Below, piece after piece: positions 22,042-64,000 of a stretch of 64,000 nt of DNA; position 1 is the first letter of the stretch; every line of letters begins with the position of its first letter. The stretch is from a virus, in the IMG/VR virus record IMGVR_UViG_3300006735_000001, positions 32,001 through 96,000 of that record. One strand, given 5' to 3'. The notes under the pieces are model-generated. The model was not told the DNA's origin. It ran no database searches and worked only from the letters and a program-made list of their open reading frames with translations. A program made the position numbers and the translations under genes.

Positions 22042-22350
22042 TTATTTTTTCATGTAAGCTTTACGTGCAGTCTTTCTGACCATACCTTTCTTAGTGCCTG
22101 CTTTCTTTTTTGAACCTCCTCTTTTATACTTTACTTTGCCACCATTAGTCATCATATCTAAAAGATCAGACTCCATACCTTGAAGACCTCCCATTTCACC
22201 TGCCATTTCCATAACTCTTTTACCAGCATTCATAATACCTTCACTAATGTAATCACCTTTTGATGATCCACTACCTGATGTAAGATTATTAGCCATACCC
22301 ATGCCACCCATGTTCATTTTTTTAGCTAACATTTTTTTCATATTTCCCAT
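22042..22350 (-). CDS. small basic Met/Gly/Lys-rich protein with xxGG motifs
   Basis: MNMGG, EMGG, TNGG, YKRGG; K-rich C-terminus. Confidence 0.7.
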   Translation of the reverse strand: MGNMKKMLAKKMNMGGMGMANNLTSGSGSSKGDYISEGIMNAGKRVMEMAGEMGGLQGMESDLLDMMTNGGKVKYKRGGSKKKAGTKKGMVRKTARKAYMKK

Positions 22351-22843: not shown

Positions 22844-23686
22844 TTATGGATATATTCTTATTTCTATTCCTGTTCTTAATAATTGATTGTCAGCAAGACT
22901 TCCATTTTCCTGCGTACTTAACTGAAAACTTGCAGTAGCACCACCAAATATATTAATCACTACTGTTTGATTTTTTAAATTACCTTGTGCAGGTGCAAAA
23001 AATACTTTGTCCAAATTAGCCAGAGCTGTTCCCCAAGTACCTCTATACATACCTGTGTTTGTACGTGTCCATACAATAGTATTACCGGTTGTATTTTCTA
23101 GTACTGTTGCAACTGGTGCATCGGTTCCAGATTGTGATAACAACGCAGTATAGCTTGTATACGGTCTCCCATCTGTGGAATTAATAGTAATCTCATTTGC
23201 GCTTTGTGCTAATGTTACATTTGTACCTCCTATTAAAGATCTAAAATTAAGTGTCTCACCTACTTTATCTTTCCATATTGCAAATCCAGTTCCTGCATTA
23301 GCAGCCGTATTAGGCTCACCTGTTGTAGTTATCTCTACATAATCATCATCATCAGAGTTGGCAAGAGTCAGGTTGCTACTCAAAGACTTTAAGGATCTGT
23401 AAAATACAGTACAAGTCTCAAGAACGTCATCAGATTCTGTTTTCTGATATACTTGACCAGTGCCAGCAGCTGGAGAAGCTGGAGAATTTGCATGTGCACA
23501 GTGTTCTGCAGCAACCTTAAAATCTCTCACCTTTATAACTTTAACACTCTTGTAAGGTATTGGTGAAGCAACACCTTCCATATCAGGCTGTTCATTAGTT
23601 CCTATTATAAGAACATCATTTAAACCAGCTTTCTTTGCATAAACTGATCTTTTTATTAAACTTAATACATCAGTTAAAATATTCAT
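22844..23686 (-). CDS. short tail fibre / structural protein
   Basis: Repeated (Y/F)RSL..(S/G)..(L/V)TLA fibre motif, YTALLSQSGT.AP...LENT, C-terminal IEIRIY; N-terminus resembles that of 19114..21444. Confidence 0.65.
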   Translation of the reverse strand: MNILTDVLSLIKRSVYAKKAGLNDVLIIGTNEQPDMEGVASPIPYKSVKVIKVRDFKVAAEHCAHANSPASPAAGTGQVYQKTESDDVLETCTVFYRSLKSLSSNLTLANSDDDDYVEITTTGEPNTAANAGTGFAIWKDKVGETLNFRSLIGGTNVTLAQSANEITINSTDGRPYTSYTALLSQSGTDAPVATVLENTTGNTIVWTRTNTGMYRGTWGTALANLDKVFFAPAQGNLKNQTVVINIFGGATASFQLSTQENGSLADNQLLRTGIEIRIYP

Positions 23687-23859
23687 TTCTTCTTCTGTTT
23701 TTTAGATGGGCCACTGTATGTATTATGGGTACCCCCCCCTAGTTTTTTCTTTCTCAAGTTTCTTTCAAAAGCAGAATGCATCATAATCTCACCACCTTTA
23801 GGTAATAACTTATCACCATTTTTAGGTTTCTTCTGTATTGGAAGTTTGTGAGTTCTCAT
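23683..23859 (-). CDS. 58-aa basic protein with xxGG motifs (not in ORF track)
   Basis: MRTHKLPIQKKPKNGDKLLPKGGEIMMHSAFERNLRKKKLGGGTHNTYSGPSKKQKKK; ATGA/TAATG coupling on both sides. Confidence 0.65.
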   Translation of the reverse strand: MRTHKLPIQKKPKNGDKLLPKGGEIMMHSAFERNLRKKKLGGGTHNTYSGPSKKQKKK

Positions 23860-42100: not shown

Positions 42101-45100
42101 AGACATTTTATCTAATGCCTTATCTGTCATTTCATTAGAACCTTTTAGAGCTTTGTCAAAATCTTTTATTTGATTTATAACATTTGTGGTTTTATTAGAG
42201 TCTGCTCTTAATTTTCTTTTAGCAACATAATAAGCTTGTTGCCACCTGGTAAGTTGTGAATTAATATCATCTTTTTGAGATGCTGTATAAATTCTTACAT
42301 CTCCAGCTAATGATCTTTCTACAAATAAATAGTCTAGCCTTACATTAGTAAAGCCATTTATAAATGATTGAAGTAAGCTAGAGTTTTGTATTTCTGCCGG
42401 AAAGGATTCATCTGTTAATAATGATTCAGAACTATAACCAACATCATGTAAAAGCTTTCTAACTATAGCACCTCCCTGTACGTTATCTTCTCCAAAGAAA
42501 TACATACTCTTTAAAAAGTCAAGTGGATTAGTAATATTAGATGTAGATTTTAATATTGAATTAAATGCATCTACAAAATCTACAGGAACAATTATTCTTT
42601 CACCTTTAGTTAAATACTCATTTCCAAAGAAATCTTTTTCAGATACTGAAGTTAAAGCTATATATTTTCTTACATCAGAAGGAATAGCTTTTAAACCACC
42701 TATCAGTGATGCATCTAGATCATATTGTGATACAGTTCTAACTCCAACAGAATCTTCAACATTATCTATATTCTCTTCTTGAATGACAGATTTATCTGTT
42801 ATCATTTCAAGTAAATTATCCGCTTGCTCTATAATTAAAGTAGAATAGTTTAAAAATGCAGACTCAATTTGTTTTAACTTTTCCTTTTGTTCATCTGTCT
42901 TTAAATCATTGACTTCATTATTAGGACTATATAACCATTGATAATCATCTACTACTTCATCAAATATATCTTTAGGGTTATATGGTAACTCAGCTTTTGC
43001 TGATCTTGCCAGGTAGCTTGCCGCTATACCTCTGACTATCATATCAGCTATATTTCCATCTAAGTAATCAAAACCTTCTGTATCTTTAACAACTATCTTT
43101 TTAAAAGGCACCAATGCATTAGCAATTATAGGCCCGTCATTTAATACTGACTCAGTAAATTCATTACTCACTACTGATGCATTTTTATATTTACCTGCAT
43201 CAATATCTTCAAAAGTTCTTTGTAATTGTGAAGTAGTAAACCTATCTATAAAAGCTTTTATAAATTCAATTATTCTATTAAATAAAGATTTTACTTCTGT
43301 ATTTGTATTAGTATTCCTTGGATTTATTTTGAACTTATCAAACTCATCAGACATGTACTCTTCATAGTATAATTTTTCTAACTGCTTTCTACTCATATCA
43401 CTATAAGTATTTGCTGAGTTCTTAAATTTTTGTAGTTCTTTCTCAAAGCTTTTACCTTCAGCTCTAAGTTTTGCTCTTACTTCTTTTCTGGCTACAGATT
43501 GTAATCTCTTTTGTTGTTCTGGTGTAAGTAATAATCTATATACAGCATGAAAAGCTTCATGATATTTAAATGGATTTTGTGCTCCTGTATAAATTGTACC
43601 TTTTACATTTAATCCACCGGCTAAATCATTTAAATACATTTGAAAAGCACCTACCCTAACTCCTCCAGCTTTCATATTATCACCTAATACTGCTATGTCT
43701 TCTATGCTAATGAAGTCTGGTAATATTCTTTCAGCCTCCATCATAAAATCATTAATATTAACTATATCAAGATCATCAAATACTGGAGTAAATACACCAC
43801 TTAGAATTTTGTTAACTAACCCTTTATCTTGTCTATCTCTTTCTTTTAATAATTTCTGATACTCTTCATTTTTTTGTAAAGTTTTAAAATGATCTCTTGG
43901 TGCTACACCCTCTAACAAGGATACCTTTAACTCTTCAATTTGAATGTTGATATTATTTTGTTTAACAGGTAATCCTGGTTGCTTACCATCTCTAAACATT
44001 AGCCAGCTAGATTTATTATTTCCAACTTGTGGGATACTACCATCTAATCTATCTTGAATATAGTCAACTATAATACCCATTTTGTCCATAGAAAAATCAT
44101 AGTCTTTGGTTATTCTTTTCAGAACCATTTCTCTACCTTTTTCTAGTGTTATCTTTCCGTTCTTTATGCCTTTATCTATTGTCTTTATGTAACTCTCTAT
44201 AGATTTATCTTCTACAGCTTTTTCATCAGAATTTAAATATATGATATCACCATTGCTGTCTTTCCCTTTAGTCTTAGTTCCAAGAGGTTGGGTACTATTA
44301 CCTCTCCTTGCAGCACTTTTTGCTTCATATAACTGAGTAGTAAGGCTCTTAAATTTAGCTCTATTTTTATCAGAAACCTCTCCTGTAACAGGATCTCTTA
44401 AAGCTCGAATCTGTTTCTCAACAGTAGATACAACATCATCAAACTTTTGATTTGGATTAGTAGAAGCTGTTGTAGGATTAGGAGCAATAGCTACTTTCAT
44501 ATCAATAATCTCTGAATTAGTGTCGTATATACCTTGTTCTCTTAGAGAAAACTCTCCACCTCTTCTTTTGACTTCTGCTATTTGATCTAAGAATGCAACT
44601 GGTACAGGGACATTACCTTCAACCATATCAGTATATTCTGTCTCAGTTATATCTAGTACACTATTCTCTGCTTCATTACTAGTTCGTGCTGGAGTTTGTA
44701 ATACTGGTCCTATTGGTTTACCAGAATAAGGTTCAGTCATCTGAAAAGTCCCTGATGCATTTGCTGCATCTGGTACACCTCTACCAGCATCTATCCCTGC
44801 TGAGTTAGCATTTAATCTTACCTTCTGTCCTTTAAATACATTTGTTGCAGTTTTTGTTGTAGTCTTATCTAATATCTCATCATATGTAGCATCTTCAGGA
44901 AATCCTTTACTAAACTTAGCAGGGGTAATCACCACACCAGTAGATTCTATTTCTTCATTTAATCTACTAATTAATGTAACAAGTTTTGCTTCTACAGAAA
45001 TCTTAGGATCATTTACTTCATCTCTTGTTAATTTTGGTGTTTTTGTAGCTACATCTTTTTTATTATTTTTATCATACAATTGCATTTGTACTTCCCCATA

Positions 45101-50475: not shown

Positions 50476-53400
50476 TTAATTATTTAAATTTAAAACAGGT
50501 CTATTATCTTTGACTATTGTATCCTTTGGTAAATATCTGTTTTTATTATCTTTGATGCCATATCTTTTGCTATCTAAGTCAAAAAGAGCCTTATTATTTT
50601 TTCTTAATTGTTCAAAAGATTTTCTTTGTGCCTCAATTTTTTTATCTAACTCTTTAAGAGAAAATCCTTTTGGAAAAAACAATTGCATTGTTCCAACATC
50701 CGGAATATAATTACCACCTGATTTATCATTTGGATTATAAGGGTTATAGTTGTATGCTTTATACATCATTCTATAAATATTATCTGCATCTTTTACTACT
50801 TGAAACTCTGCAGTAGTTTGTATATCACCTGGAACAGTAGTAGTATATGTATCATTAGGTGACTCTAATATTGCTGTTTCAACAAAAGAAAAATACGGTT
50901 TATTTACAGCATATTCACTTATATCTTGATCTTGTGGAAAAATTATAGATATACCTTTAGCATTAGAATCGTACATAGCAGTGCCTTCTTTTTCTCCATA
51001 AAGAGTACCAGGCTCAGGAACAATACCTTTTAAGCTATTAATATCTCTTGTATCTAATGCTCCATAAGAATCATTACTACTACCTTTTTTCTTACTTGCT
51101 AACCAGTCTTCATCAAATACTATTTGCCAACCTGCATTAGCTTTGTCACCATCATCTGATTGTCCTAAAACAGGCTTATAAATTAACTCAACTGCTGGTA
51201 CTGGTTTATCAGGATTTTTTTGAGGATTTGCTAAATATTCTGCATAATCTTTTCTCCACATTCTTAAAACCTTTTCAGCTGTTGCATCTTTCTGCATAAG
51301 TTCATCTGAGTCCAACCCTCTTTTATTAATGCTACCAGCTATCACACCATAAGGTCTTCCTTGAAAACTATTTAATTGATTAAAAAATGCAAGCACTGCT
51401 TCATTATTTTGTCTTTGTAGTTCTGGACTAAGCTTAACAATTGGATTTATTTTATAAGATATTGAAGTACCTGCATAAGCATTTTCAAATATATCTCCAC
51501 GTCCTTCCATTATACCTCTAAAACTAATAGGAGGTAAAGAACCATATTTTTTATCTCCTTTTAAAGATTCTGTAAGTGCTTCTCTATATATATCATAATA
51601 CTTACCAGCATCAGATGCTACCGCATCTTCATCTAAACCTTTTGAATAAGATATATCCATAAACTCACCATGACCTGTAACTGTTTTAATATCATTCATG
51701 TAGTTTTTATCTGCCGATCCAGATAATAAAGGCACAGAACTTTGATTACCATCTATAAATCTAGAATCCCAGTTTGTAAGTTGACCAGCCTCAGCTAATT
51801 TTATTGCTTGCTGAATAAACTTTTCTCTGGTCATTATACCACCTCTCTCATTTAGTATACTTCCTAAACCTGCCCTTCTACCATCTCTTGCATCACTAGT
51901 TCTAATTAGTTGCTCATTTTGGAATTTATTATCTATAGCAGTATAATGTTGAGTTATTCTTTTATAATTTTCTTCTAATACTGCATTAATTGACCTAATT
52001 TGATTTTCAGTAGATTGAGGATTAGTAATCATATCTCCATATAACTCATCATATGGAGCTCTATTTTCTGTTAAATTTGGATTATTCAATATCATCTGCC
52101 TTCTATCTTTTATTACTTTGACAGCATCATCAAAAGCTATATTAACTTTATCTCTATTTTCTAATAATCCATTTTCACCTACTGCATTCATTTGAAGCCT
52201 TAAATCATTAGGTGTACCTTCAAATAATATATTTCCTCCATCATCACGTACAGCATATGTATTAGTTTGTCCTCCTACATTCCCAGTAGGGTTTGTAATT
52301 GTTAATGTTTTAATAATATTTTCAACTTGTCTTTTATGTAGAGCAGCATCTGCTTCATCAAATTCCTGTTCAAATATTTCGTATGGTTTGAATTCCGTCA
52401 AATCTGGGTCTCCATCACTATCTGTAGGAAATTTATTTGTATCTGAAGACCCATAAGTTTTATTTACCCCATTTGCTGCATCTATTATTCTTTGTTGACT
52501 TTCACTATTGATAGTACCTTCTGCTATTCCTTTTAAATATTCAAGTTCATATTTTCTTTCTTGTCTTTTATCTGCAGCTCTATCTCTTTGACTTTGTAAA
52601 GCAGAAGCATAATCAGCTTGCTTTTTTATAACACCATACTTACTTTCTCTTATTGAATATTCATAATCTCTAGATGCATAATCTCTTGCAGATTTATTTA
52701 TATCACCTAATATATTATAATTCATAATTAAGTTATATGCTTTATTCATCAAAGCTTGATCAGTGTTGCTAGGTAAGTTAGCAATCTCTTTCATTTCTAA
52801 ACTTGCATTTAAAGAAGCTTCGGTTGCATCTAACATTTCTTGCTGATCTTGATAAGCCAAAGCCATTGTAGAGTCAGGACCTTCCAATATACCTACATTA
52901 GCTTGATAGTTTTGCCAATTTACATTTGCATTAACAAGATTTTGTTTTTTTCTAATTTTTTCTTGAGTATCTTTGGTATTCATACTATCAATACGTCTGA
53001 TAGTTTCTTTTGCCCAAGCTTCTTTACCTTGACTAATAGAAGAAAAAGTACCATTAGTAACACCCTCAGATGCAAAATCTCTAGATCTTACAAAGCCTTC
53101 TTCATAATATGCAGCAATTACTTTAGGATTTTGTAATAGTTGATTCCTTAATATTTGTTCTGCTTGTCCTGTTACTTGTTTACCGTTTTGTTCAGTAATA
53201 ATAAAATCTGTTAATGGTCTACCTTTTTTATCTGTCTCAAAATAATCTACCTTTCTTTTCAAAGGAGGATCCATTTCTGATAAAATCTTATCGGCTAATA
53301 GACCTAGGTCAGCATCTTCTACATATTTAGGTAGTGCCATATTCATAGCTTCTTGCTCAGATGCATTTATAAAATCCTCCATTCTATATTGTAATCCTTT

Positions 53401-53826
53401 CTTACCGGTATCCCAATACTTTTCATATTGTTCTTTGTTTGGATTATCTAATAGTAAATTTGCATAAGACATTTCATCTCTAAATCTAGAAGTAAATACA
53501 ACATCTCTTACAGTTAAATCATCTTGATAAAATGGAGCAAACACAGACTTAGCTGCATCTGCATTACTCTGCAGTGATAAATCTAATCCAGATATTTTTT
53601 CAATCTGTGGACCTATTTGTTGAGCATATTGATCTCTTCTATCTTTAGTATCTTGTCTAGATAGATCAGCATAAACAACTTTGTTGTATAAATCATTAGT
53701 AGCCTGGAAGTTAGCATCATACTTATCTTGCCTAGCATTTACTACCTGAGATAAAAATTTATAGTCAGGTGTAAATGGTTTAATATCTGGTAAATAAGTA
53801 TCAGCTCCTTTTATATATGTTGCCAT
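50476..53826 (-). CDS. large virion/injected protein
   Basis: 1116 aa; PFTPD...Q..YD N-terminus; first of the giant-gene trio. Confidence 0.65.
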   Translation of the reverse strand: MATYIKGADTYLPDIKPFTPDYKFLSQVVNARQDKYDANFQATNDLYNKVVYADLSRQDTKDRRDQYAQQIGPQIEKISGLDLSLQSNADAAKSVFAPFYQDDLTVRDVVFTSRFRDEMSYANLLLDNPNKEQYEKYWDTGKKGLQYRMEDFINASEQEAMNMALPKYVEDADLGLLADKILSEMDPPLKRKVDYFETDKKGRPLTDFIITEQNGKQVTGQAEQILRNQLLQNPKVIAAYYEEGFVRSRDFASEGVTNGTFSSISQGKEAWAKETIRRIDSMNTKDTQEKIRKKQNLVNANVNWQNYQANVGILEGPDSTMALAYQDQQEMLDATEASLNASLEMKEIANLPSNTDQALMNKAYNLIMNYNILGDINKSARDYASRDYEYSIRESKYGVIKKQADYASALQSQRDRAADKRQERKYELEYLKGIAEGTINSESQQRIIDAANGVNKTYGSSDTNKFPTDSDGDPDLTEFKPYEIFEQEFDEADAALHKRQVENIIKTLTITNPTGNVGGQTNTYAVRDDGGNILFEGTPNDLRLQMNAVGENGLLENRDKVNIAFDDAVKVIKDRRQMILNNPNLTENRAPYDELYGDMITNPQSTENQIRSINAVLEENYKRITQHYTAIDNKFQNEQLIRTSDARDGRRAGLGSILNERGGIMTREKFIQQAIKLAEAGQLTNWDSRFIDGNQSSVPLLSGSADKNYMNDIKTVTGHGEFMDISYSKGLDEDAVASDAGKYYDIYREALTESLKGDKKYGSLPPISFRGIMEGRGDIFENAYAGTSISYKINPIVKLSPELQRQNNEAVLAFFNQLNSFQGRPYGVIAGSINKRGLDSDELMQKDATAEKVLRMWRKDYAEYLANPQKNPDKPVPAVELIYKPVLGQSDDGDKANAGWQIVFDEDWLASKKKGSSNDSYGALDTRDINSLKGIVPEPGTLYGEKEGTAMYDSNAKGISIIFPQDQDISEYAVNKPYFSFVETAILESPNDTYTTTVPGDIQTTAEFQVVKDADNIYRMMYKAYNYNPYNPNDKSGGNYIPDVGTMQLFFPKGFSLKELDKKIEAQRKSFEQLRKNNKALFDLDSKRYGIKDNKNRYLPKDTIVKDNRPVLNLNN

Positions 53827-53885: not shown

Positions 53886-56414
53886 TTACATTCCCATCTT
53901 CCCAGTATAAAATGCTGGGTTTATAGCAAACTTTTTCATTTCGTTTCCATCCTTTGCTTCATCTGGTTCATCTGTTCTTTCTGCTCTATATCCAATAGGT
54001 GCTCCATATTCTTGACTATATACTTGTGCATTGTTCATATTAGCAGTATTCTGAGGTAACCCTCCAACCATATTTCTATATAATGCATCAACTGTTTTAT
54101 CGTCCATTGGTCTCCCTAAGTATTTTTCATATCTTTGGACTTTCTGAGCAAATGCAATTTCAGCATTTTGTTTAGGATCTTCATAAGGTTGTCTACCTCT
54201 ACCAGTAAACTCAATATCACCATATTGATCAGCACCAATCTTATACATATCATTAAGACTATTTAAGTTATATGTATTTGATGCATTAGTTGCACCTACA
54301 TTAAACAACTCATTAGCTTTCATTGTCTTCCAGTTATCCTCATTGTCTTTATTTTGTAAAGCAACTATAGTATTATCATACAGACTTTTAGTTCTATCAT
54401 TTTGTAGTTTATCATATTGCATTCCAAATTGAGGTGCAAGCATACCCACTTTATTCATAGTTTGAACATTTGCTTGATTAACACCTGATATTGCTTTTGC
54501 ATTAGCATCTAATGTTGTTCCTTGTATATTACTTCGTGCAATAGCTTGTGGTCCATAATTACCTAATGCATCAGCCATAGTACCTTGAGCAGCTAAGTTT
54601 GCATTAATAATTGTAGTTGGATCATCTAGTACATAATCTATTTTACGTTCTTGTATTGGAGCTTGAAATGGTAAATATAAGTTACTATCAAACATATTTA
54701 ATGCTTGTAAATTATTTACATCTTGTTGCCACCATGGTTTTCCTGGATCATCTGACGGAATAACTGGAGGTATTTCAATAGGTGCTTCAGGTCCTTTTAT
54801 ATTAAACTCATCACCAGGTTCAAAACCTACATTAAGTCTAGGAGTATTAAATGTATGCAAACCAAAGTCACCATCAAATCCTCTACCCTTTTCCCAATTA
54901 GGATCATCTTTACTTAAGAAATATGGTACATATGGTATATTAGCTGCTAAAGCTTCTTCTTTTCTTTTTGCTTCTGCTGCTTTTTGAAATCTTAATACTT
55001 CCTTTTCGCTAGGGTCAGAATAGTTAAACCCCTCTTCTCCAAACTCAGCTTCTATTACATCACCCCATCTAGTATAAAAATCTTCTTTATTTTCTTCTAA
55101 CAGAATGTCTTCAGACCCATAAATTTTAGCACCTTTAACTTTTCCTTGATCACGTGATCTTTTCCCTCCAGATAAAGAACCATACTTGTATTGTGCTTTA
55201 TCAGATGCATCTATTACTTCACCTTGTAAACTAATGTCTTCATTATATATATCTACTGCAGTACTATCAGGTCTTAACCTAGTAGGTACTCTACGTTCAG
55301 AACCTGATCCACCTGGAAACTTACCTTTAGGAGCTAATTTAAAATTATAATTATTAGTTGCTGGATCATATGTCATTACATAACCTTTACTTATAGCATC
55401 TAAATATTTTTTTGTGTTAACTGGATCACCAACAAATGGGTTTTCTTGTATAATAATATCAGTGTTATCAACCTCTTCAGGTGACTCACCAGCAGTTTGA
55501 TATCTTGGTATAAAAGTCTCTAGACCATTCTTAGCCATATTCATCATACTTGTATCAGCTTGAGCAAGTTGTGCTTGATTAGCAGAAAACTCTGGTGGCC
55601 CTTGAGTCCCTTGAGCTACTGCACCTGCTTGATTTTCTTGAGCCATCATGTTTTGCAACATCTGTATCATATTTTGTTGCTCTGTAGGTAATTGTTGAAT
55701 TGCATTTTCTCTAGCTTGAGCTTGACTAATACCTTCTACCTGTGAAGTAAACTCTAAAGGATCAATACCTTGCCCCAATAAATAAGGGTGTGCGATTAAA
55801 GGAACACCATCATCAAAGTTCTTTTTAGCTTCTTGCATAAAACCAAGTTTAGATAAATCATTCATATTCTTTTGAATCATTAATTCTGCACTTCTGGTAG
55901 ATATATCATCAGCAAACTGAGATCCTATTTCTGCATAATAATCATTTAGATTAAACTTCTGTGATATTTTAGCAGGAGTCTTTCTTGAACCACCCATATC
56001 AAACTCTGACATTTCTTCTTTTGTAAATTTTAATTTTGGTGTATCAGAATATATAAATGACTGTTCTGGTAAGAACATAGGTACACCCCCTTGAGAATGT
56101 CTTTTACCACTTATATTATATAAACCAAATTTTCCATCATCATTTAAATCTGTCAAAACTGTTTCTCCACCTTCTGCTTCTACATTAGCAACATCTCTTG
56201 GAACTTTTGATAAACTGTATCTTACACTTTTATCTTGTTCATTATTAAAAGATGTACTTCCATAGTACTCTTGAGGAGTTGTAACCAAACCATAATTAGC
56301 TTGATCACCTGTTACATATACGTCACCACCTTGTTGCATAACTTGATCTTCAACAACTTTGCCGTTAACCAATTTAAATCCTTCAGGTAATTTATTTATT
56401 TTTATTTTTGCCAT
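53886..56414 (-). CDS. putative virion core protein with xxGG motifs
   Basis: EAEGGE...GKRHSQGGV motif; MQQGG, AKNG, YQTAG, AKDG. Confidence 0.65.
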   Translation of the reverse strand: MAKIKINKLPEGFKLVNGKVVEDQVMQQGGDVYVTGDQANYGLVTTPQEYYGSTSFNNEQDKSVRYSLSKVPRDVANVEAEGGETVLTDLNDDGKFGLYNISGKRHSQGGVPMFLPEQSFIYSDTPKLKFTKEEMSEFDMGGSRKTPAKISQKFNLNDYYAEIGSQFADDISTRSAELMIQKNMNDLSKLGFMQEAKKNFDDGVPLIAHPYLLGQGIDPLEFTSQVEGISQAQARENAIQQLPTEQQNMIQMLQNMMAQENQAGAVAQGTQGPPEFSANQAQLAQADTSMMNMAKNGLETFIPRYQTAGESPEEVDNTDIIIQENPFVGDPVNTKKYLDAISKGYVMTYDPATNNYNFKLAPKGKFPGGSGSERRVPTRLRPDSTAVDIYNEDISLQGEVIDASDKAQYKYGSLSGGKRSRDQGKVKGAKIYGSEDILLEENKEDFYTRWGDVIEAEFGEEGFNYSDPSEKEVLRFQKAAEAKRKEEALAANIPYVPYFLSKDDPNWEKGRGFDGDFGLHTFNTPRLNVGFEPGDEFNIKGPEAPIEIPPVIPSDDPGKPWWQQDVNNLQALNMFDSNLYLPFQAPIQERKIDYVLDDPTTIINANLAAQGTMADALGNYGPQAIARSNIQGTTLDANAKAISGVNQANVQTMNKVGMLAPQFGMQYDKLQNDRTKSLYDNTIVALQNKDNEDNWKTMKANELFNVGATNASNTYNLNSLNDMYKIGADQYGDIEFTGRGRQPYEDPKQNAEIAFAQKVQRYEKYLGRPMDDKTVDALYRNMVGGLPQNTANMNNAQVYSQEYGAPIGYRAERTDEPDEAKDGNEMKKFAINPAFYTGKMGM

Positions 56415-56416
56415 AA

Positions 56417-58963
56417 TTATAACATTTCTATATCAGCACCAGCAGCTATTAATTTAGCTAACATTGCCGGCCCTACATTTACAGTTTGACTATTTATACT
56501 ACCACCTCTTTTTGATGTTCTGGTTGATCCTTGATTTAAAAATAAACCAGTAGTTGCATCATCCTCTGAACCAAACATAGAATCATTTACTGATAAACCT
56601 TTACCTTTAATAAAAGGAGGAGCTTGTACATTAAACTGGCTATCTGCACCAGTTTGATTAAATAGATTTACATATGCATCATCTTTATCCTTATCACCAA
56701 AAATTACATCATTTACTACACTTGAACCTACAACACCAAACGCACCCACATCCTCAAAAGTTTTCATAGCATTACTATTATATACATCTTTTGCTAAACC
56801 ACTTAAAGATGTATCAGGATTAAAAGTAAACTTTGCTGGATTAATATTTTGACCAGGATTTACTTGTGCTAGTTGTTGATCTGTTTGATTATTCAAACTA
56901 TCTACTATTGCTTGATTATTTTCTTCTAATGGTGTAGAACCTAAATCTGGAAACCTATTTTGTAAAAATGCATCTGCTACATCTTGTGTATCTTGCATAT
57001 AGTTTGTCATTCCTTGATTATTAAATAATGCGGAAAAGTCAATATTGGTTTGTGCTTTAGGTAAGTCATTACCACCATACTTTCTTTTCATTATTTTATC
57101 TTGTACAAAGTCAGGTAATGCACGGAATCCTTCATTATCTGGTTCACCACCTTTTTCAGCTTTATTCATAGATGCTTTAATAGCTGCATCTTTTCTTGCT
57201 AAATATACATCTTCTCCTTTAGGTCCACCATATTTCATATAACCCATCTTGTTACGTACTTGTCTTGGTAACTTACGTAAACCTTTACCTTTTTTTCCTG
57301 ATGGTGTTTGTTTTAGTTGACCACCAAATTTTACTTCTTCTTCTATTTCTTCTACCTTAACATCTTCTATGTTAATAGGAGTATCTACATCATCAGTAAT
57401 AATATTTTTAAGAGCCTTCTGCTCTTCAGCTTTACTACGTTTTTTTTCATAGTAATTTCTATATAGTTTTCCTATGCCACTACCTATATCATCTCCTAGT
57501 CCATCAAAGAAAGGTACTGCATCATCATTTATAAAACTCTTTACATCTTGCCCTATATTTTTTGCGTTTTCTTTTTGAGTATTTAACCAATTATTAAAGT
57601 TTGCTCTTTTATTTGCTGGTATGTTAGATAAATCAAAATTAGAAAATACACTAGGATCTATATCAGTACCTGCTTTAAGACTTTCATTTATATAATCTTG
57701 TATAGCTTTTTGATTAGCTGGAGATACATCTATCTCAAAATCAACAGATCCTCTGGTAACTCTATCAATATCATTTAAATTTTTCTTTTTTCTCCAATCT
57801 CTAAATGTACCATCTGCAGCACCGTCACCATTTTTATCATCAGAACCAAAAAACATATCATTGGTATTACTTAAAAAGTTATAAATTCTTCCTAAGTTAT
57901 TCATAGAGTTGTCTGGAACAGGGTTGTATTTATAACCTTTTTTTGATGCATCTCCTGGTTCTTGTTCATATAAAATACTACCATCTAATGCTTTTACATA
58001 ACCGTCAGATATATTAGGTCCAAAAAATTTAGAGTAATCTATATCATTTAAATTCTTAAATGTAGAATTGAAAGCACCTGCACCGGTTGTACCCTGAGTA
58101 CCTTGAGTACCAGCAATAACATCATCAATCATACTATTAGATTGTCTGTCAGTATTAGAGTTATTTCTATTAGCACTTGAAATACCAAATGCATTACCCA
58201 ATGCTTCAAAAGCAGCCGCATATTTTGGATCTAAATCAGGACGTTTTGCATATACATCTTCTGTATCTTGTTTGTAATCTGTTTTTCCTTGATACTTATC
58301 AGTATACTGCTGAGGAGTAAGACTCTTAATAAAGTCCATATTTATATTAAACTGAGCTTTAGGTAACCCTTCACCACCTTCTTCTCTTTTAAACTTAGCA
58401 GCATTCTTTGCAAAATTAGCCATCTTTACAACAGCAGGAGAATATTTCTCCTTATTTGCCATAACCTTCTTAGCAGCTTCTTGAACGCCCATACCACGTG
58501 CTTTAGCCCATCTAGTAAACTTACCTCTATTTTTCTTTTTAATTTCTATACCTGATTTAGCTTCATCCATCATTGGATCTATTTCGTCTAACACAGGTAA
58601 CTTATCTTGATCACTTTCTATATATTGCTCTCTACTAAGTTCTTGAGGATTTTGATTTATTTCTTCTCCTGTTGGATCAGCAGGTCTCTGCATCTTTTCA
58701 ACATTCTTAAATATAATCATTATGTCTTCTTCTTGCATTCCAGATACCATCATTGCTTGTGCAAGACTTTGTTGGTCTACCTGCTTCTCCATTAACATCA
58801 TTACAACTTCTTCAGGTTTTTTACCTTGTTGTATAGACATCATAAAAAAATCACTTATTTGTTTAATTTGTGGATCAACTTGTGGTGGATTTGGTTGCAT
58901 ACCTGGTTGCTCAGGAATCATCTGTCCACCTTGTTGTTTTAAACTTTTTTTGTTTAGATGCAT
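56417..58963 (-). CDS. modular low-complexity virion protein with about 8 xxGG motifs
   Basis: KQQGG, REEGG, KFGG, KYGG x2, EKGG, KRGG; LPKAQ x2; basic IKKKNRGKFT...ANFAKNA module. Confidence 0.65.
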   Translation of the reverse strand: MHLNKKSLKQQGGQMIPEQPGMQPNPPQVDPQIKQISDFFMMSIQQGKKPEEVVMMLMEKQVDQQSLAQAMMVSGMQEEDIMIIFKNVEKMQRPADPTGEEINQNPQELSREQYIESDQDKLPVLDEIDPMMDEAKSGIEIKKKNRGKFTRWAKARGMGVQEAAKKVMANKEKYSPAVVKMANFAKNAAKFKREEGGEGLPKAQFNINMDFIKSLTPQQYTDKYQGKTDYKQDTEDVYAKRPDLDPKYAAAFEALGNAFGISSANRNNSNTDRQSNSMIDDVIAGTQGTQGTTGAGAFNSTFKNLNDIDYSKFFGPNISDGYVKALDGSILYEQEPGDASKKGYKYNPVPDNSMNNLGRIYNFLSNTNDMFFGSDDKNGDGAADGTFRDWRKKKNLNDIDRVTRGSVDFEIDVSPANQKAIQDYINESLKAGTDIDPSVFSNFDLSNIPANKRANFNNWLNTQKENAKNIGQDVKSFINDDAVPFFDGLGDDIGSGIGKLYRNYYEKKRSKAEEQKALKNIITDDVDTPINIEDVKVEEIEEEVKFGGQLKQTPSGKKGKGLRKLPRQVRNKMGYMKYGGPKGEDVYLARKDAAIKASMNKAEKGGEPDNEGFRALPDFVQDKIMKRKYGGNDLPKAQTNIDFSALFNNQGMTNYMQDTQDVADAFLQNRFPDLGSTPLEENNQAIVDSLNNQTDQQLAQVNPGQNINPAKFTFNPDTSLSGLAKDVYNSNAMKTFEDVGAFGVVGSSVVNDVIFGDKDKDDAYVNLFNQTGADSQFNVQAPPFIKGKGLSVNDSMFGSEDDATTGLFLNQGSTRTSKRGGSINSQTVNVGPAMLAKLIAAGADIEML

Positions 58964-58981
58964 TTTGCTAGAGTTATATTA

Positions 58982-58991
58982 ATAATATACA
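58982..58991 (-). promoter_or_regulatory. putative late promoter motif TGTATATTAT
   Basis: Third exact copy, 19 bp upstream of the ATG at 58963. Confidence 0.55.
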
Positions 58992-59023
58992 AATAATTAA
59001 GGAATTTCACTAATCTTTTAGGT

Positions 59024-62000
59024 TTAAGAATTTCCTATGACATGTGTCATAACATAATTAGGTATAGACATATTTGCTAATTTAGCTGATTTATAATTCT
59101 TCCTATTAAGTTTATCATATACTCTTTGAGCTTGTTCTTTTGAACCTCCTTCTTTATATATACCCTTAATGTAGTTTGTATAAATTTTATTCATAGATCT
59201 TAAAGGGCCTCCTTTTTGTTTAAAATATTCTATAATATCATTATACTTAGGATTAATAATAATATTTTCAAACTCATCATTAAATTTAGAGTCCTTCCTC
59301 TTTAAGATTTTATTAATATAATCACTTGATTCATTATTTATAGAGTCTGTCCAATCTGTAGAATTATATATATCTATACCTTTATTTTTTAATTTTGTTA
59401 TTGAATTTTTTGCACCAGTTGGACCAGCATTATATGCAAATAAAATTTTAGCCAAAACAGATTCATCATTACCTTGATTTAAATAAGGTCGTTCACTTAA
59501 ATAGTTCATCCATTTTTTTTGTGCTGGGATAGCCTGATTTATATCATATGGATCAAAATCATCACCTACTATTTTTAAACGTTGCATTTCTTCAATAGTT
59601 ATAGGTGTAAATTGTGCAACACCTTTAGCATCCTTTTTAGATGTAGCATTTGCATTAAAAGATGATTCTTTAAATAATTGTCTTAATAATAAATCATTAC
59701 TTATAATTGGTGCACTGTTCTTTGTAATAATTTGTGCTCTGCTTGGTGTAGAAACGGGACCTCCTTCTTGATATTTCTTTTGTTTTATATTTAAATACTT
59801 AGAATTCTTTAATGCATTCCGTGTATAGGCATCTCTATTAGGATCACTACTACTAGTTCCTGCATATAATCTTGGTAAATCTTCTATGGCTACATTACCA
59901 CCTTCTCTGTTATTACGCAAGTATGCTAAAATACCTACTGTACCTAATGCAGCTTTTTTTGGATCATCAAAGTCTTCACCACTTGTTATACCTAAACTAG
60001 CTAATGATTTTACTAACTCAGGTTCCTTTAGTATTTGACCCCATCTAACTTGTGTTAATCCCATACTAGCATTATTAGGATCAGATATACCTACATTATC
60101 AAGTAAATTATTTACATTTCTTTCTGCTTTATAGTCTGCACTTCCTCTAGGTCCTATTTTTAAACTATCAGGTAAATCTAAATTATCAATAGCTTTATCA
60201 TAAAGAGATGATCCAAATTTTAGACCAGCTCTTACAGTATTACCTATTGCACTATGTGTATCTCCAAAACCTGTTTCATTTCCAAATATACCAAAAGCTA
60301 ATCCCGCTAAATCATTATATACATCACCATTAACTTTTAAATTTTTCATTACAAGTTGTTTATTATCTTGCAGTGACTTAGCAAAAGGTACTACTGTATT
60401 ATTGTATTCTTCATCATCGTCACCAAAAAAATCAGTTTCATTAAATTGATCTTCTTTAAATTTATCATCTATAGATACTTGTATAGGTTTATAGTTTAAA
60501 GTATTAACGGTTCTATTTATTCCTTGCCCTTTTTGTATATTACCTCTATCATCTTCATATTCTAAATAATCATTTCTTTTAGAACCAGCCTTAAAATTTA
60601 ATTGACCATTTTCAAATACAAACTTATTTCCCTCATCTTCTGGTAGTATAAATACTTCAGAGCTTTGTTGCAAATAATCTGTCAATACATTTAAACTGCC
60701 TTGATTACATCTTATGCAACCATTAGATACTCTACTGTTATCATCATCAATATATCCTGCATGAAGTGAGGTTCCTACATTTTGACCAGATTCATTAGAT
60801 AAATTAAAGCTAGGTAAATCCATATAACCAGCTCTGTTTATATTAGATATTTTATATCTTCCTGCTCCTGTCATTTTATTACCAGCTGACCAATCAATAT
60901 TATCTGGTGATATTTCATCTTGACTAATAGTACCATCTTGATTTATATCTACATATTTTGTAACTGTTTGAGCATCACCCATAACTGCACCTAAATCTAC
61001 AGGAGCACTATAAATAGGTTCATTTGGATTATTACCTGGCTCATAGACATGCATCAATCCGGATTGTTTATCTACTATTACATAAGGTTTATTATTATTT
61101 GATTGATTCTGAAAGTTAACAATCAAATCAGCTTGACTCATTTTATTAAATTCATTAGCCCTATTTTTTACATCAGCAATATCTTCATACTCATCTATAT
61201 CTACAACATCAGTAGAACTATATGGACTAGCAACCAATTCATTTTGAACTTGTATATCTTGTGCTTCTCTTTGTCTTAATCCAGCATTTGTCATATCTTC
61301 ATCAGATGGATTAAACTCTTCACCTTTTAGATTTGTTCCATAGTTTTTATTATTATAATTAAATATTTTATTAGGACCATAGTAATCTCTTGCTATTCTA
61401 AATGCAGAATTAAAATCTTGTGCACCATTAATTCTATCATCAACTTCTACTACACTTAATGTAGAAAGAGGTGTATCAGCAGTATTAGATGGAGGTAAAT
61501 TAGTAGATGGCGTAGGTTTAAATTTATTAGGATTATCTAATAACTCTGATCTTAACTTCATATTTACATCATAACTACCATCAGTTAATCCTTGTTCTTT
61601 AGCAGCTGACCATGGAGTTCCAGTAACATTTTCCCAAATATCACTTACTGCACCACCTTGTTGTGCTTTAGGTAATGTTTTAATCTTACCGTTCTCAGTT
61701 CTAGCATATCTATTATTTTCATTTTCCATGCTAGGAATGAGTGTGCCTGAATAAGTTTTACCTTTCCATTGCCAGCTTACTGATCCACCTTCTTTAAAAC
61801 CTAATTTGTTTTTCCAGTAATTTGGTATATTTTTAATACCTTCCATAGAGATGTCTATATCATTAATGGGAATACCAGTCATCTCTGCAAAACTATCAAC
61901 ATCAGAAAGCCCCTCAACCTGAGGAATAAATTGAGCTCTTTCATTATATAATCCTTTTAATACATTTGGTATTGTTCCTTCTGGTAGATTATCATATATA

Positions 62001-64000
62001 TCTTTTATATCATTACCTAGTTTACCTAATCTATTTTTTGCCATTTGAACTCTACCTGTACCAGGTTTATCACCACCAGGAAGAACATCTGATAAAAATA
62101 CATCAAGATCAGCCAATGTTTTATTTCCTAATCTTTCAAAATATGCAGGATTATTTCTATTTTTTATTGCTTTTATTGCTGTAGGATTTTGTAATACTGT
62201 TTCTACTGCATTATTTATTTCATTTCTATCTAAACCATCTAAATAATTTGTGAGAAGATTAATGGTGTCACCACTAAGATCTACTTTTGCTTCTTCTTTT
62301 ACTAATTTTGCTAACCCATCAAATCTACTTGTCCTTTTTCCTTTTACACTTCCTGGAACTATTTTATCACTATAATTTTCTAAAATATTATCCATAACAA
62401 AATTAGGATCAGTAATACCCCCTCTACTATTTTCTGGTGAATTAGGATCCATACCTAAGGCCAAACATACTCCAGTAGCACAATTAGAATCTAAAAAGTC
62501 ATAATTATATATGCTGTTATCCTCCAATGATAAAGGAAGTTTAGTTGTGTTCATTCTTAAATTACTATGAATAGAACTTCTTTCAGTACCTTCAAATAAT
62601 TGTGCTTGATCTACAAAACCTTTTATTTCTTCATCAGATAAATCTAAATCTAAAACTCTTACCTCATTTTTCCCTTTATAATCTTTTTCACTAACACGCT
62701 TATTTCCTGAACCAGTTGACCATCTATTTACACGGCCAACTAAATCAGTACCAGGTATTTGATTTACTTGATCACCTGTATCAGTATTAATTAGTACAGC
62801 TTCAATATGTCCAGGACTAAACTTTTTACTTCCATAAGGATATTGTATAACTCTTACATTATATTTTGAATAATCTATTTCTTTACCGTCTTGAGCCATA
62901 TTCCAACTTACTAAACCACCTTCTTTTTGTTGGTTTAATCCCGCTGCTCCTATAATAGCTGGAGGTGCAATAGCAGGAAAAGCTTTATTATTCATTAATT
63001 TAGATAACTTTGGATATGTTGAAGGATCTAAAAAATCTAATAATCTAGTATTACTAAAAAAACTATCTGAAAATCCAGGATTCTTCTCAATTAAACCAGC
63101 AGGTCTTGCAGAAAAACTTTTTTTTGCTGCATTTAATATGCTAGGGGTTATTTCATCATATATGTTATTTATTAAACCCCTCTCTAGCATACTTCTCCTT
63201 AGTTCAACAGCAAAAGGTATAGGTTCATCTCCTATATATCCTTGTCTAGGGTTAGGACTTCCAGTTGCAAAGTAATCATAGTCACTTGTTAATTGTTTAC
63301 TTCCAGTATTGATCTTAGCTTTGTTCAAACCAAAACCAGTACCAGAAGACAAATCTAATTTAGTATTAACTAAATCGTTAGGTTTAAGTACTCTGAATTC
63401 ATCACTCAAACCTATAGGTCTGTTAGCATTAAATAAATGTCCAATTTCATGATCTAAAGTAGTATTAAGACTTTTACCACTAAACATAGGGCCTACACCT
63501 ATAGTTCCTTTTCCAGGTTTAAGACCTAATCTAGTTGTAAATGAATAATCTCCTGACATAGGAGAACTTCTATTTACAGTTATTACATCACCCACTGTAC
63601 CTCCAGCACCTGGATTCCTAAAATATGCATTAGTAAATAAACCTTGATTTTCACTTATAAAATTTTTTGCTATATCATAGTATTCACTAGAAGGATTTCC
63701 TGCACCATCATTAAACATATTACGTGCATGATGATTAATGGTATTTCCTTTTAAATTTGATAATTCTTGATATCTAGCTAATGCTGCTGATTGAGCTGCA
63801 TCATCTAATGTAGTACCTGCTGGCGGAACATAACCAGATGCTTTTAAATGATTTAACTCTTGATTTGCTAGTCTATTAAAACCTTCTGATCCAGGTTTAA
63901 TCTCATCTAGTCTCATTGTTATAAAATTATCTATTTCATCAGCATTTCTACCTAACATTTCTAAACCATCTGTTAGATCAGGATTACTACCAGGTGTAGC
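59024..64000 (-). CDS. multi-enzyme polyprotein (zincin, permuted papain-like, L,D-transpeptidase, lysozyme-like, SLT transglycosylase); 5'-truncated
   Basis: HEIGH; GHIEA...YDFLDSNC; VDK...SLHAG...SNGCIR; NETGFG...SMGLTQV; KESSF...AKGVAQF...AYNAGP; frame open to the window end. Confidence 0.8.
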   Translation of the reverse strand, partial: ATPGSNPDLTDGLEMLGRNADEIDNFITMRLDEIKPGSEGFNRLANQELNHLKASGYVPPAGTTLDDAAQSAALARYQELSNLKGNTINHHARNMFNDGAGNPSSEYYDIAKNFISENQGLFTNAYFRNPGAGGTVGDVITVNRSSPMSGDYSFTTRLGLKPGKGTIGVGPMFSGKSLNTTLDHEIGHLFNANRPIGLSDEFRVLKPNDLVNTKLDLSSGTGFGLNKAKINTGSKQLTSDYDYFATGSPNPRQGYIGDEPIPFAVELRRSMLERGLINNIYDEITPSILNAAKKSFSARPAGLIEKNPGFSDSFFSNTRLLDFLDPSTYPKLSKLMNNKAFPAIAPPAIIGAAGLNQQKEGGLVSWNMAQDGKEIDYSKYNVRVIQYPYGSKKFSPGHIEAVLINTDTGDQVNQIPGTDLVGRVNRWSTGSGNKRVSEKDYKGKNEVRVLDLDLSDEEIKGFVDQAQLFEGTERSSIHSNLRMNTTKLPLSLEDNSIYNYDFLDSNCATGVCLALGMDPNSPENSRGGITDPNFVMDNILENYSDKIVPGSVKGKRTSRFDGLAKLVKEEAKVDLSGDTINLLTNYLDGLDRNEINNAVETVLQNPTAIKAIKNRNNPAYFERLGNKTLADLDVFLSDVLPGGDKPGTGRVQMAKNRLGKLGNDIKDIYDNLPEGTIPNVLKGLYNERAQFIPQVEGLSDVDSFAEMTGIPINDIDISMEGIKNIPNYWKNKLGFKEGGSVSWQWKGKTYSGTLIPSMENENNRYARTENGKIKTLPKAQQGGAVSDIWENVTGTPWSAAKEQGLTDGSYDVNMKLRSELLDNPNKFKPTPSTNLPPSNTADTPLSTLSVVEVDDRINGAQDFNSAFRIARDYYGPNKIFNYNNKNYGTNLKGEEFNPSDEDMTNAGLRQREAQDIQVQNELVASPYSSTDVVDIDEYEDIADVKNRANEFNKMSQADLIVNFQNQSNNNKPYVIVDKQSGLMHVYEPGNNPNEPIYSAPVDLGAVMGDAQTVTKYVDINQDGTISQDEISPDNIDWSAGNKMTGAGRYKISNINRAGYMDLPSFNLSNESGQNVGTSLHAGYIDDDNSRVSNGCIRCNQGSLNVLTDYLQQSSEVFILPEDEGNKFVFENGQLNFKAGSKRNDYLEYEDDRGNIQKGQGINRTVNTLNYKPIQVSIDDKFKEDQFNETDFFGDDDEEYNNTVVPFAKSLQDNKQLVMKNLKVNGDVYNDLAGLAFGIFGNETGFGDTHSAIGNTVRAGLKFGSSLYDKAIDNLDLPDSLKIGPRGSADYKAERNVNNLLDNVGISDPNNASMGLTQVRWGQILKEPELVKSLASLGITSGEDFDDPKKAALGTVGILAYLRNNREGGNVAIEDLPRLYAGTSSSDPNRDAYTRNALKNSKYLNIKQKKYQEGGPVSTPSRAQIITKNSAPIISNDLLLRQLFKESSFNANATSKKDAKGVAQFTPITIEEMQRLKIVGDDFDPYDINQAIPAQKKWMNYLSERPYLNQGNDESVLAKILFAYNAGPTGAKNSITKLKNKGIDIYNSTDWTDSINNESSDYINKILKRKDSKFNDEFENIIINPKYNDIIEYFKQKGGPLRSMNKIYTNYIKGIYKEGGSKEQAQRVYDKLNRKNYKSAKLANMSIPNYVMTHVIGNS

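Follow-up and report, generated by a model that had tools for sequence, protein, structure and literature searches.

A GG-ending junction peptide recurs at module boundaries in predicted cargo proteins of a marine crAss-like phage

Few viruses of the human gut are as abundant as the Crassvirales, which are also common in the sea. In PhicrAss001 the gene for the muzzle protein (gp44) is followed by those for the cargo proteins gp45 and gp46, and then by those for the virion RNA polymerase (RNAP) proteins gp47, gp49 and gp50 (PMC10172136). The first cargo protein (C1, gp45) is a virion protein built like beads on a string, in which short segments are docked. Cryo-electron microscopy of the virion located two pieces of it, residues 214–245 on the tail barrel and residues 425–552 on the portal, which are 420 Å apart, on opposite sides of the portal (Bayfield et al., 2023; PMC10172136). 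A second related system is that of the polyvalent proteins of phages and conjugative elements, in which many unrelated effector domains, among them wall-attacking domains and zincin-like peptidases, are carried on one phage polypeptide, delivered with the DNA and shuffled, and for which it was proposed that a peptidase within the protein carries out processing (Iyer, Burroughs, Anand, de Souza and Aravind, 2017; PMC5512222). This paper concerns a short peptide ending in Gly-Gly that recurs at the joints between modules of proteins encoded by adjacent genes of a marine crAss-like phage. The DNA analysed (64,000 nucleotides, referred to as the window) comprises bases 32001–96000 of the IMG/VR record IMGVR_UViG_3300006735_000001, a complete virus record of 113,577 bp with direct terminal repeats and a G+C content of about 31%.

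The genes in question have a crAss-like layout. On the minus strand, a 2132-amino-acid (aa) muzzle-type protein encoded outside the window is followed by proteins of 2185, 848, 842, 1116, 4769 and 1969 aa, so that the 2185-, 848- and 842-aa genes stand between the tail-muzzle gene and the virion RNAP block. By analogy with PhicrAss001 these three genes most likely encode cargo (ejection) proteins that are packed in the particle and injected. The coordinates below are those of the window, and all features located by them are on the minus strand. P0001 (59024–64000) is the part of the 2185-aa cassette-carrier protein that lies inside the window, its C-terminal 1644 aa; the gene extends to window coordinate 65581, and the ATG at 63958 is not its start. 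The 848-aa protein (P0002) is encoded at 56417–58963, and the 842-aa protein (P0003), which has a conserved N-terminal region, at 53886–56414. Neither P0002 nor P0003 belongs to a Pfam family or has a tblastn match among 50,697 deposited phage genomes. P0002 has 555 homologues in metagenome protein sets, many of them encoded on contigs of about 113 kb from Tara and other marine samples. The relatives used for comparison are 80 IMG/VR loci with the same gene order, collected in a scan with an alignment of P0002 homologues.

P0002 appears to be a partial homologue of gp45. Residues 139–191 of P0002 align with residues 376–423 of gp45 (53 residues, 38% identity, pairwise E=8e-5), and in both proteins an x-x-GG sequence follows directly after the aligned stretch, so that the P0002 junction FKREEGGEGLPKAQ equals NWNAFGG 422–428 of gp45 in position. 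The two also share their gene position and an N-terminal GG copy (NIFDTGGQ at residues 15–22 of gp45). About seven further copies of x-[YFEDK]-GG are distributed along gp45 (AYGG 210, AEGG 264, AFGG 333, KDGG 374, AFGG 428, AYGG 563 and AKGG 829). Both pieces resolved in the virion lie between these motifs, at 210, 264, 428 and 563, and the homology blocks that gp45 shares with other gut crAss phages start at 222/264, 369–372 and 422–427 and end at 329/343, which coincides with the GGs of gp45. Similar punctuation occurs in p-crAssphage gp47 and in DAC15 gp080, and from these sequences the junction feature seems to run through the Crassvirales in differing flavours. The likeness to gp45 is limited, however, to about 55 residues; three genes here replace one, and the A-F/Y-GG of gp45 contrasts with K/Q-x-GG and LPKAQ in the marine phage. 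The motif is unmentioned in PMC10172136, and the PhicrAss001 papers do not give the size of gp45 at band level. The Pfam family crAss_CARG1 (PF25725) has no match at E<=1 in the six frames of the complete genome, and profiles of the marine P0002 and P0003 families run against PDB sequences returned low-complexity noise only, without the gp45 chains. Membership in the gp45 family, as judged from the sequences, is partial only. In DAC15 gp080 (locus L083, 2425–4923) there are two tandem copies of the domain that P0002 has in common with gp45 (GGGIHIK..GKFT.YCGG..WN.AEGG), each closed by an x-EGG.

The motif is strongly concentrated in two of the three proteins. In its strict form, [KQREM][KQEYFM]GG, it occurs 13 times in the 3033 aa of the 2185- and 848-aa proteins (4.3 per 1000 aa), against 8 times in the 29,259 aa of all other open reading frames (ORFs) of at least 100 aa in the genome (0.27 per 1000 aa), a 16-fold higher density (Fisher's test on GG contexts, p=1.1e-8). 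Per-protein shuffles gave expectations of 1.06 and 0.53 copies, where 7 and 6 are observed, and none of 5000 shuffles reached these numbers. Chance or composition as the origin of the motif is ruled out by the shuffles and by Fisher's test. All seven GG dipeptides of the 848-aa protein are in the motif context. LPKAQ is present in three copies in the window, with a fourth variant, LPKMQ, just beyond it. The GG codons are mostly GGT GGT, the same as elsewhere in the genome, and the signal is therefore at the protein level; a Shine-Dalgarno-like or internal-start reading of the K/E-G-G codons is ruled out on the same ground. Among the 80 loci the number of strict motifs per 1000 aa is 3.78 in the P0002 family, 1.43 in the family of the largest protein (P0001) and 0.64 in the P0003 family, compared with 0.38 for the next gene, 0.22 for the muzzle and 0.23 for the RNAP, and 35 of 41 LPKAQ copies are in the P0001 and P0002 families. 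The motif pattern is real and widespread.

All motif copies listed in the initial annotation of this DNA were found in the genes named, and its statement that the motif is not similarly enriched in the replication genes or the RNAP block holds. The enrichment that it claimed for three adjacent proteins is borne out for the 2185- and 848-aa proteins and not for the 842-aa protein, which has 1 strict copy against 0.52 expected (p=0.41), though that copy is invariant in its family. It had also grouped the single-Gly variants AKNG, YQTAG, AKSG, AKDG and MAQDG with the main motif. The P0003 family contains a composite with the consensus MAxxGxE..LxKAQxGxE, which is fitted by the AKNG/YQTAG stretch of P0003 (about residues 290–312, the degenerate composite MAKNG..IPRYQTAGE at 55485–55538), and the single-Gly variants are therefore justly grouped with the main motif.

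The motifs mark module boundaries, and modules are exchanged exactly at the joints. In 117 proteins of the P0001 and P0002 families, 16.5% of the BLAST end-point weight is placed no more than 6 aa from a strict motif, compared with 4.5% at random. Ends of alignments have their peak at GG or the residue after it (+1), where they are about ten times as frequent as at random, and the starts have theirs at -3/-2. In the homologues P0124 and P0126 the N-terminal domain (...PMAQDG) is fused straight to a papain-like module, whereas in the window phage about 790 aa separate PMAQVGG from NMAQDG at the place of this fusion; the junctions that precede the papain-like module in homologues are variously MAQDG, PKAQDG, LQDGG and YEEGG. 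The proposal that motif positions match domain boundaries thus agrees with the homology breaks at GG, and also with the disordered domain edges in the P0002 model and the papain-like fold described below. The junction peptide tells where modules start and end in gp45-like cargo, and explains how new enzymatic cassettes are swapped in.

The GG is the end of a longer element. Residues preferred around it are L/I at -6, K at -4/-3, K/Q/E at -2, E/Y/Q/M at -1, E at +1 (36%), L/I/V at +2 and P at +4. The spacing from LP to GG in the cargo proteins peaks at 5–6 residues (LPKAQxGG) and at 15 residues (GFKALPxxVQxNILxNMxxGG), and has no peak in muzzle or RNAP proteins. These fixed spacings make LPKAQ the head, and GG the tail, of one element of 8–21 aa. 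In its long form the junction is, as read from the sequence, an amphipathic helix with a conserved hydrophobic face. A protease would not need such a face together with conservation both before and after the GG.

The disposition of the element is clearest in P0002. An AlphaFold2 model (75 sequences) has confident domains at residues 25–100, 140–190, 355–465 and 655–750 and a terminal helix, and all seven motifs are in stretches with a predicted local distance difference test score (pLDDT) below 50 at domain edges. Three anchors are kept in most homologues, namely NLNKKSVKQQGG, WKKEEGGE at the end of the N-domain and K-x-QQGGE before MLAKLIAAGADIEML, and their GG identity is 73–93% of 74 sequences against 22% for the other residues of disordered stretches. 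The first anchor corresponds to the N-terminal junction NKKSLKQQGG (residues 4–13; 58925–58954; pLDDT<50). The second is FKREEGGEGLPKAQ (58352–58393), which closes the conserved domain of residues 140–190 (58394–58546); its GG is identical in 73–82% of the 74 homologues, 23 end-points of high-scoring segment pairs (HSPs) fall here, and all homologues diverge after it. The third (56420–56512) consists of the KRGG junction (56501–56512) and the constant C-terminal helix ending in MLAKLIAAGADIEML (56420–56494), with the GG identical in 92–93% of homologues and the C-terminal residues invariant. Between the second and third anchors, residues 545–638 (57050–57331) form an array of three tandem junction units, in the order KFGG, VRNKMGY unit, KYGG, helix unit, EKGG, GFRALP..KYGG unit and NDLPKAQ; these units recur elsewhere along the homologues.

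The largest protein is built on the same plan, with constant ends and variable cassettes. A constant N-domain of about 95 aa, which lies outside the window, is found in 53 of the 80 loci and the C-terminal module in 62, while the middle modules are each present in 1–25. In 44 unique members of the family the N-domain always ends in h-P-M-A-[QK]-x-G(G). The C-module of about 55 aa has an xxGG some 55–62 aa before the end in nearly all of the 44 members by eye (33 of 44 match a regular expression), and 15 HSP end-points pile up at the junction before it. The ends of these proteins are always flanked by junction motifs. In the 2185-aa protein the N-terminal junctions PMAQVGG (residues 92–98) and LPKMQTAGE (residues 228–236) are in the part outside the window. 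Further on, KEGG (62915–62926) and MAQDG (62885–62899) together directly precede the papain-like cassette. A KEGG (61784–61795), a small module of about 36 aa (61676–61783) and LPKAQQGG (61652–61675) then form a unit of about 50 aa that recurs in seven related loci at differing positions. REGG (59897–59908), an extra copy absent from the initial list, ends the lysozyme-like segment, and QEGG (59759–59770) stands directly before the SLT domain. QKGG (59207–59218) and KEGG (59144–59155) lead into the constant C-module (YDKLNR...NYVMT), the whole occupying 59027–59218.

The cassettes carried between these joints are mostly enzymes by prediction. The SLT lytic transglycosylase domain (59372–59704; residues 1419–1529; Pfam PF01464, E=6.9e-9) stands between QEGG (1397) and QKGG (1581) of P0001, and its region matches PHROG entries for an endolysin or an internal virion protein with endolysin domain. 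A YkuD cassette (L,D-transpeptidase fold; 60647–61087; Pfam PF03734, E=9.6e-5, 23.4 bits) is exactly at the Pfam cut-off, and is found in 20 related loci. The lysozyme-like segment (59897–60349), also found in 20 related loci, has no Pfam match, and its assignment as an enzyme therefore comes from the GNETGFG motif (60263–60283) alone. A zincin-like cassette carries a HEIGH motif (63437–63451), with a weak Pfam match to Reprolysin_3 (E=0.096). With at least two unrelated enzyme domains (SLT, YkuD at the cut-off and the permuted NlpC/P60 fold described next), the protein resembles the polyvalent proteins. It differs from them in that the ends are constant and the middle alone is exchanged; no junction peptide was described for polyvalent proteins, and crAss-like phages were not covered (PMC5512222).

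The papain-like cassette (62324–62881) is a Cys hydrolase of permuted NlpC/P60 type, similar to TseH. Its AlphaFold2 model (pLDDT 76, predicted template modelling score 0.78) has the conserved His (in PGHIEAVL, 62792–62815) and Cys (in SNCATGV, 62468–62488) in permuted order. The VIA-align Z scores are 7.0 for TseH (6v98), 6.9 for MARTX RID (5xn7), 6.9 for YiiX (2if6) and 6.5 for 3kw0, all of one permuted papain superfamily, and the next unrelated rows are below 3.5. TseH is also the best Foldseek match (E=9e-3), and a language-model search of the ESM Atlas returned TseH, IcsB_M and Lnb_N. For PPPDE/DeSI, PF05903 gives nothing and no DeSI chain is among the matches listed. Residues 1–18 of the model, with QKEGG and MAQDG, are disordered and the domain begins at about residue 21. 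Judged by this model, the cassette probably acts as an effector that is delivered at infection and either targets the wall or transfers acyl groups. Only 4 of the 80 related loci have it, and the same holds for the HEIGH module; both modules are therefore passengers rather than a general enzyme. The papain-like module was considered as a general processing enzyme and is ruled out by this distribution and its similarity to TseH.

A first explanation of the joints, that of the initial annotation, is that they are proteolytic cleavage sites, at which polyproteins would be cut in the head or after injection, freeing independent effectors. The cutting enzyme might come from the host, be a peptidase carried in a cassette, or reside in the conserved zincin-like HEAFH domain of the giant protein associated with the RNAP. 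The position of the motif at module boundaries and at short propeptide-like N-terminal sites agrees with this, as does the independence of the predicted enzymes (SLT, YkuD, NlpC/P60-type), and cutting would also explain the 420 Å between the gp45 pieces on either side of the portal. There are precedents in other phages: SPN3US gp245 cuts ejection proteins after the short motif AXE (PMC10052503), polyvalent proteins have been suggested to be processed by zincins, and processing is known for P1 DdrB (PMC5512222). The GGE found at 36% of sites fits the (S/A/G)-x-E rule of giant-phage head proteases. If the joints are cut, they represent a new polyprotein system in tailed phages.

The claim of cleavage is nevertheless unsupported by the searches and by the sites themselves. 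The complete genome has no match to C48, C5, C39, C97, S77, S78 or MPTase-PolyVal. Within it no candidate was found for clan CE (PF02902, PF00770), of which a very divergent enzyme could be missed, nor for the prohead proteases (S77, S78; PF03420, PF04586), and the zincin MPTase-PolyVal (PF18818) was not detected. The two cassette-borne candidates are in only 4 of 80 relatives although the motif is universal, and the nearest relative of the papain-like fold, TseH, is a wall-hydrolase effector of the type VI secretion system. Adenain requires M, L or I at P4, in the site (M/L/I)-x-G-G-/-x, whereas P4 here is K, Q or E (also A) and not hydrophobic, L being depleted there to 0.7x background. Pro directly after GG, at P1', is not avoided (3.5% against 4.9% background). 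The modelled gp45 piece 425–552 includes the AFGG at 427–428, and the gp45 chain is therefore continuous through this joint in the virion. The N4 virion RNAP has a zincin domain and yet is packaged uncut (PMC5512222). No gene fission was found at any joint in the 80 loci. The P0002 homologue is split into overlapping ORFs in two of them (L054 and L073), inside or just after the N-domain, and these splits are most likely frameshifts or assembly errors rather than fission at a joint. Processing by prohead proteases (T4 gp21, phiKZ gp175, SPN3US gp245; PMC10052503) and by the GG-specific viral proteases adenain and African swine fever virus pS273R similarly involves one short motif that recurs in several virion-internal proteins, often near the N-terminus, but no such protease family is detected here and what is conserved greatly exceeds a cleavage motif in length. 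On balance cleavage appears rather unlikely.

A more specific version concerns the particle-borne zincin-like sequence YHEAFH (43547–43561; residues 2302–2306 of the 4769-aa protein), which has no Pfam match. About 130 residues around it (residues 2301–2429) can be aligned with gp47, a virion protein of PhicrAss001, in its C-terminal region (E=1.4e-7), with YHEAFH in both, and this conservation speaks for a processing role. That the GG joints are processing sites cut by this HEAFH zincin, in the head or just after injection and throughout the Crassvirales, is considered unlikely. If it were true, a single gene would supply free effectors, wall-degrading and other, in a set that can change, a polyprotein strategy so far unknown in tailed phages, and the small basic VRNKMGY...KGG proteins of other marine phages, described below, may be matured likewise. 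As a separate observation, the annotation of p-crAssphage gp45 gives it as a fusion with a zincin protease.

The explanation to which we give about an even chance is that the joints remain uncut and serve as a hinge or docking handle; both the function and the absence of cutting are what we infer from the evidence above. The 2185- and 848-aa proteins consist of constant N- and C-terminal modules with exchangeable cassettes between them, here mostly directed at peptidoglycan (SLT, lysozyme-like, YkuD and TseH-like NlpC/P60) together with a zincin-like module. Each joint carries one element, in its full form a basic amphipathic peptide of 8–21 residues that begins with h-P-K-A-Q or M-A-Q-x-G and finishes with K-x-x-G-G-E. 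Left uncut, the element would end the neighbouring folds, allowing each module to be stored and threaded through the portal–tail channel on its own. It could also act as a handle by which the chain docks, either to the inward-facing surface of the portal, tail barrel or muzzle or to a partner in head assembly, in the manner of the short gp45 segments seen in the PhicrAss001 virion. The element is also present at the extreme N-terminus (residues 4–13 of P0002 and 27–30 of P0003), where a hinge is unneeded. Constant ends with a variable middle fit a chain that is anchored at both ends. The hinge or docking handle is further favoured by the occurrence of one unit in small basic proteins of other phages, whose genes lie next to those for portal and terminase.

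Several points weigh against an uncut hinge or handle. The docking partner of the element is putative, and in the 80 loci the cargo proteins of the RNAP block are without the element. The structural argument is drawn from one joint of a distant homologue, as given in the text of PMC10172136 rather than in coordinates, and the A-F/Y-GG of gp45 is unlike the marine K-x-x-GG. The low pLDDT of P0002 may partly reflect a thin alignment in the variable regions. In addition, a conserved zincin-like domain travels with the cargo, so that cutting after ejection is possible.

The initial annotation had offered a capsid-loading tag as an alternative to cleavage. This is closer to the docking handle preferred here, but it fails as a general tag, because the RNAP-block cargo proteins lack the element. 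Encapsulins load their cargo by means of comparable peptides, and the internal proteins of T4 have a capsid-targeting sequence; in both cases a short peptide, terminal or in a linker, docks varied passenger proteins inside a shell of the HK97 fold. These peptides have no sequence relation to the element, which differs in being internal and repeated and in being absent from the RNAP cargo. A docking role of the joints, if borne out, would make them the first signal for the packaging or positioning of crAss cargo. The junction peptide gives precise residues to mutate, and precise masses to seek, in cultured PhicrAss001. No paper was found on the motif, nor one that links crAss cargo with cleavage or LPKAQ. 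The peptide is apparently undescribed, while modular cargo and polyvalent proteins are already known.

A third explanation is that the motif has no protein role of its own, and is a by-product of cassette exchange via short junction-coding stretches. It would account for cassettes that are inserted between duplicated junctions and for homology that breaks exactly there. The codons, however, differ between copies (GGT GGT, GGA GGT or GGT GGA, preceded by CAA, GAA or AAA), which leaves no long stretch of identical nucleotides for recombination. Moreover, the peptide is kept at anchors that are never exchanged (the N-terminus, the N-domain end and before the C-module), and an analogous motif is present in very distant gut crAss phages. 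An origin as a by-product is accordingly regarded as highly improbable.

The element may have a wider distribution. Residues 544–581 of P0002 (57221–57334) are a copy of an unannotated module, LKxVPxGKKGKGLxKLPxxVRNKMG[FY]MKxGG, for which Pfam, PHROG and the PDB gave no match. Among 1.84 billion representative proteins searched, 116 matched this unit, most of them very basic and 40–250 aa long. The unit is present in at least 446 IMG/VR viral contigs, in carriers of 36–406 aa that often have tandem KAKG[MY]xKGG repeats; a search of 185,579 cellular genomes yielded only 12 loci, most of them in bins of single-cell or metagenome origin. In the non-crAss contigs the gene for the unit adjoins the terminase and portal genes (context from IMG/VR loci L085–L164). 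This suggests that the element extends beyond crAss-like phages, and the distribution fits a role inside the head, in docking or DNA contact.

The latter role leads to a fourth explanation, in which the basic junction units bind the packaged genome and neutralize its charge; the cargo chains would then be laid out along the DNA and exit together with it, and the small basic proteins with the unit would act alike. K and R are abundant in the units, and the VRNKMGY...KGG unit makes stand-alone proteins with 20–45% K+R beside the portal and terminase genes. Against binding of this kind, the most conserved residues are not basic alone but include hydrophobic F, L, V, I and M and the GG, many joints are acidic past the GG (GGE, EEGGE), and the Pfam, PHROG and PDB searches of the unit found no DNA-binding fold or family. 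DNA binding as the function of the joints is thought quite improbable.

P0003 has fewer copies of the element than the 2185- and 848-aa proteins. Its N-terminal junction, MAKIKINKLPEGF...MQQGG (56325–56414), contains GG29–30, which is invariant in 28 homologues, and close to the C-terminus there is an EAKDG (53946–53960). No significant similarity between P0003 and gp45 was found with BLASTP or hhalign, and the idea that P0003 corresponds to the C-terminal half of gp45 is unsupported by either (hhalign probability 0.2). The invariant N-terminal region contains KRHSQGGVPM (residues 106–110; 56085–56099), to be compared with RKHSQGGIDIG in p-crAssphage gp47 (locus L082, 3107–5680). This hints that the N-domain of P0003 may have a counterpart in gut crAss phages.

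Three other proteins in the window may be mentioned. A 102-aa protein rich in Met, Gly and Lys (22042–22350) has all four of its GG dipeptides in an [MK]-x-x-GG context, and a basic protein of 58 aa (23683–23859) has LLPKGGE, and these two proteins may be small relatives of the junction units. The N-terminus of the 1116-aa protein (50476–53826), MATYIKG..LPDIKPFTPDYKFLS, resembles by eye that of PhicrAss001 gp46, MANFSFVSGAKFRPFSYQEML, and on this likeness the protein may be the counterpart of cargo protein C2.

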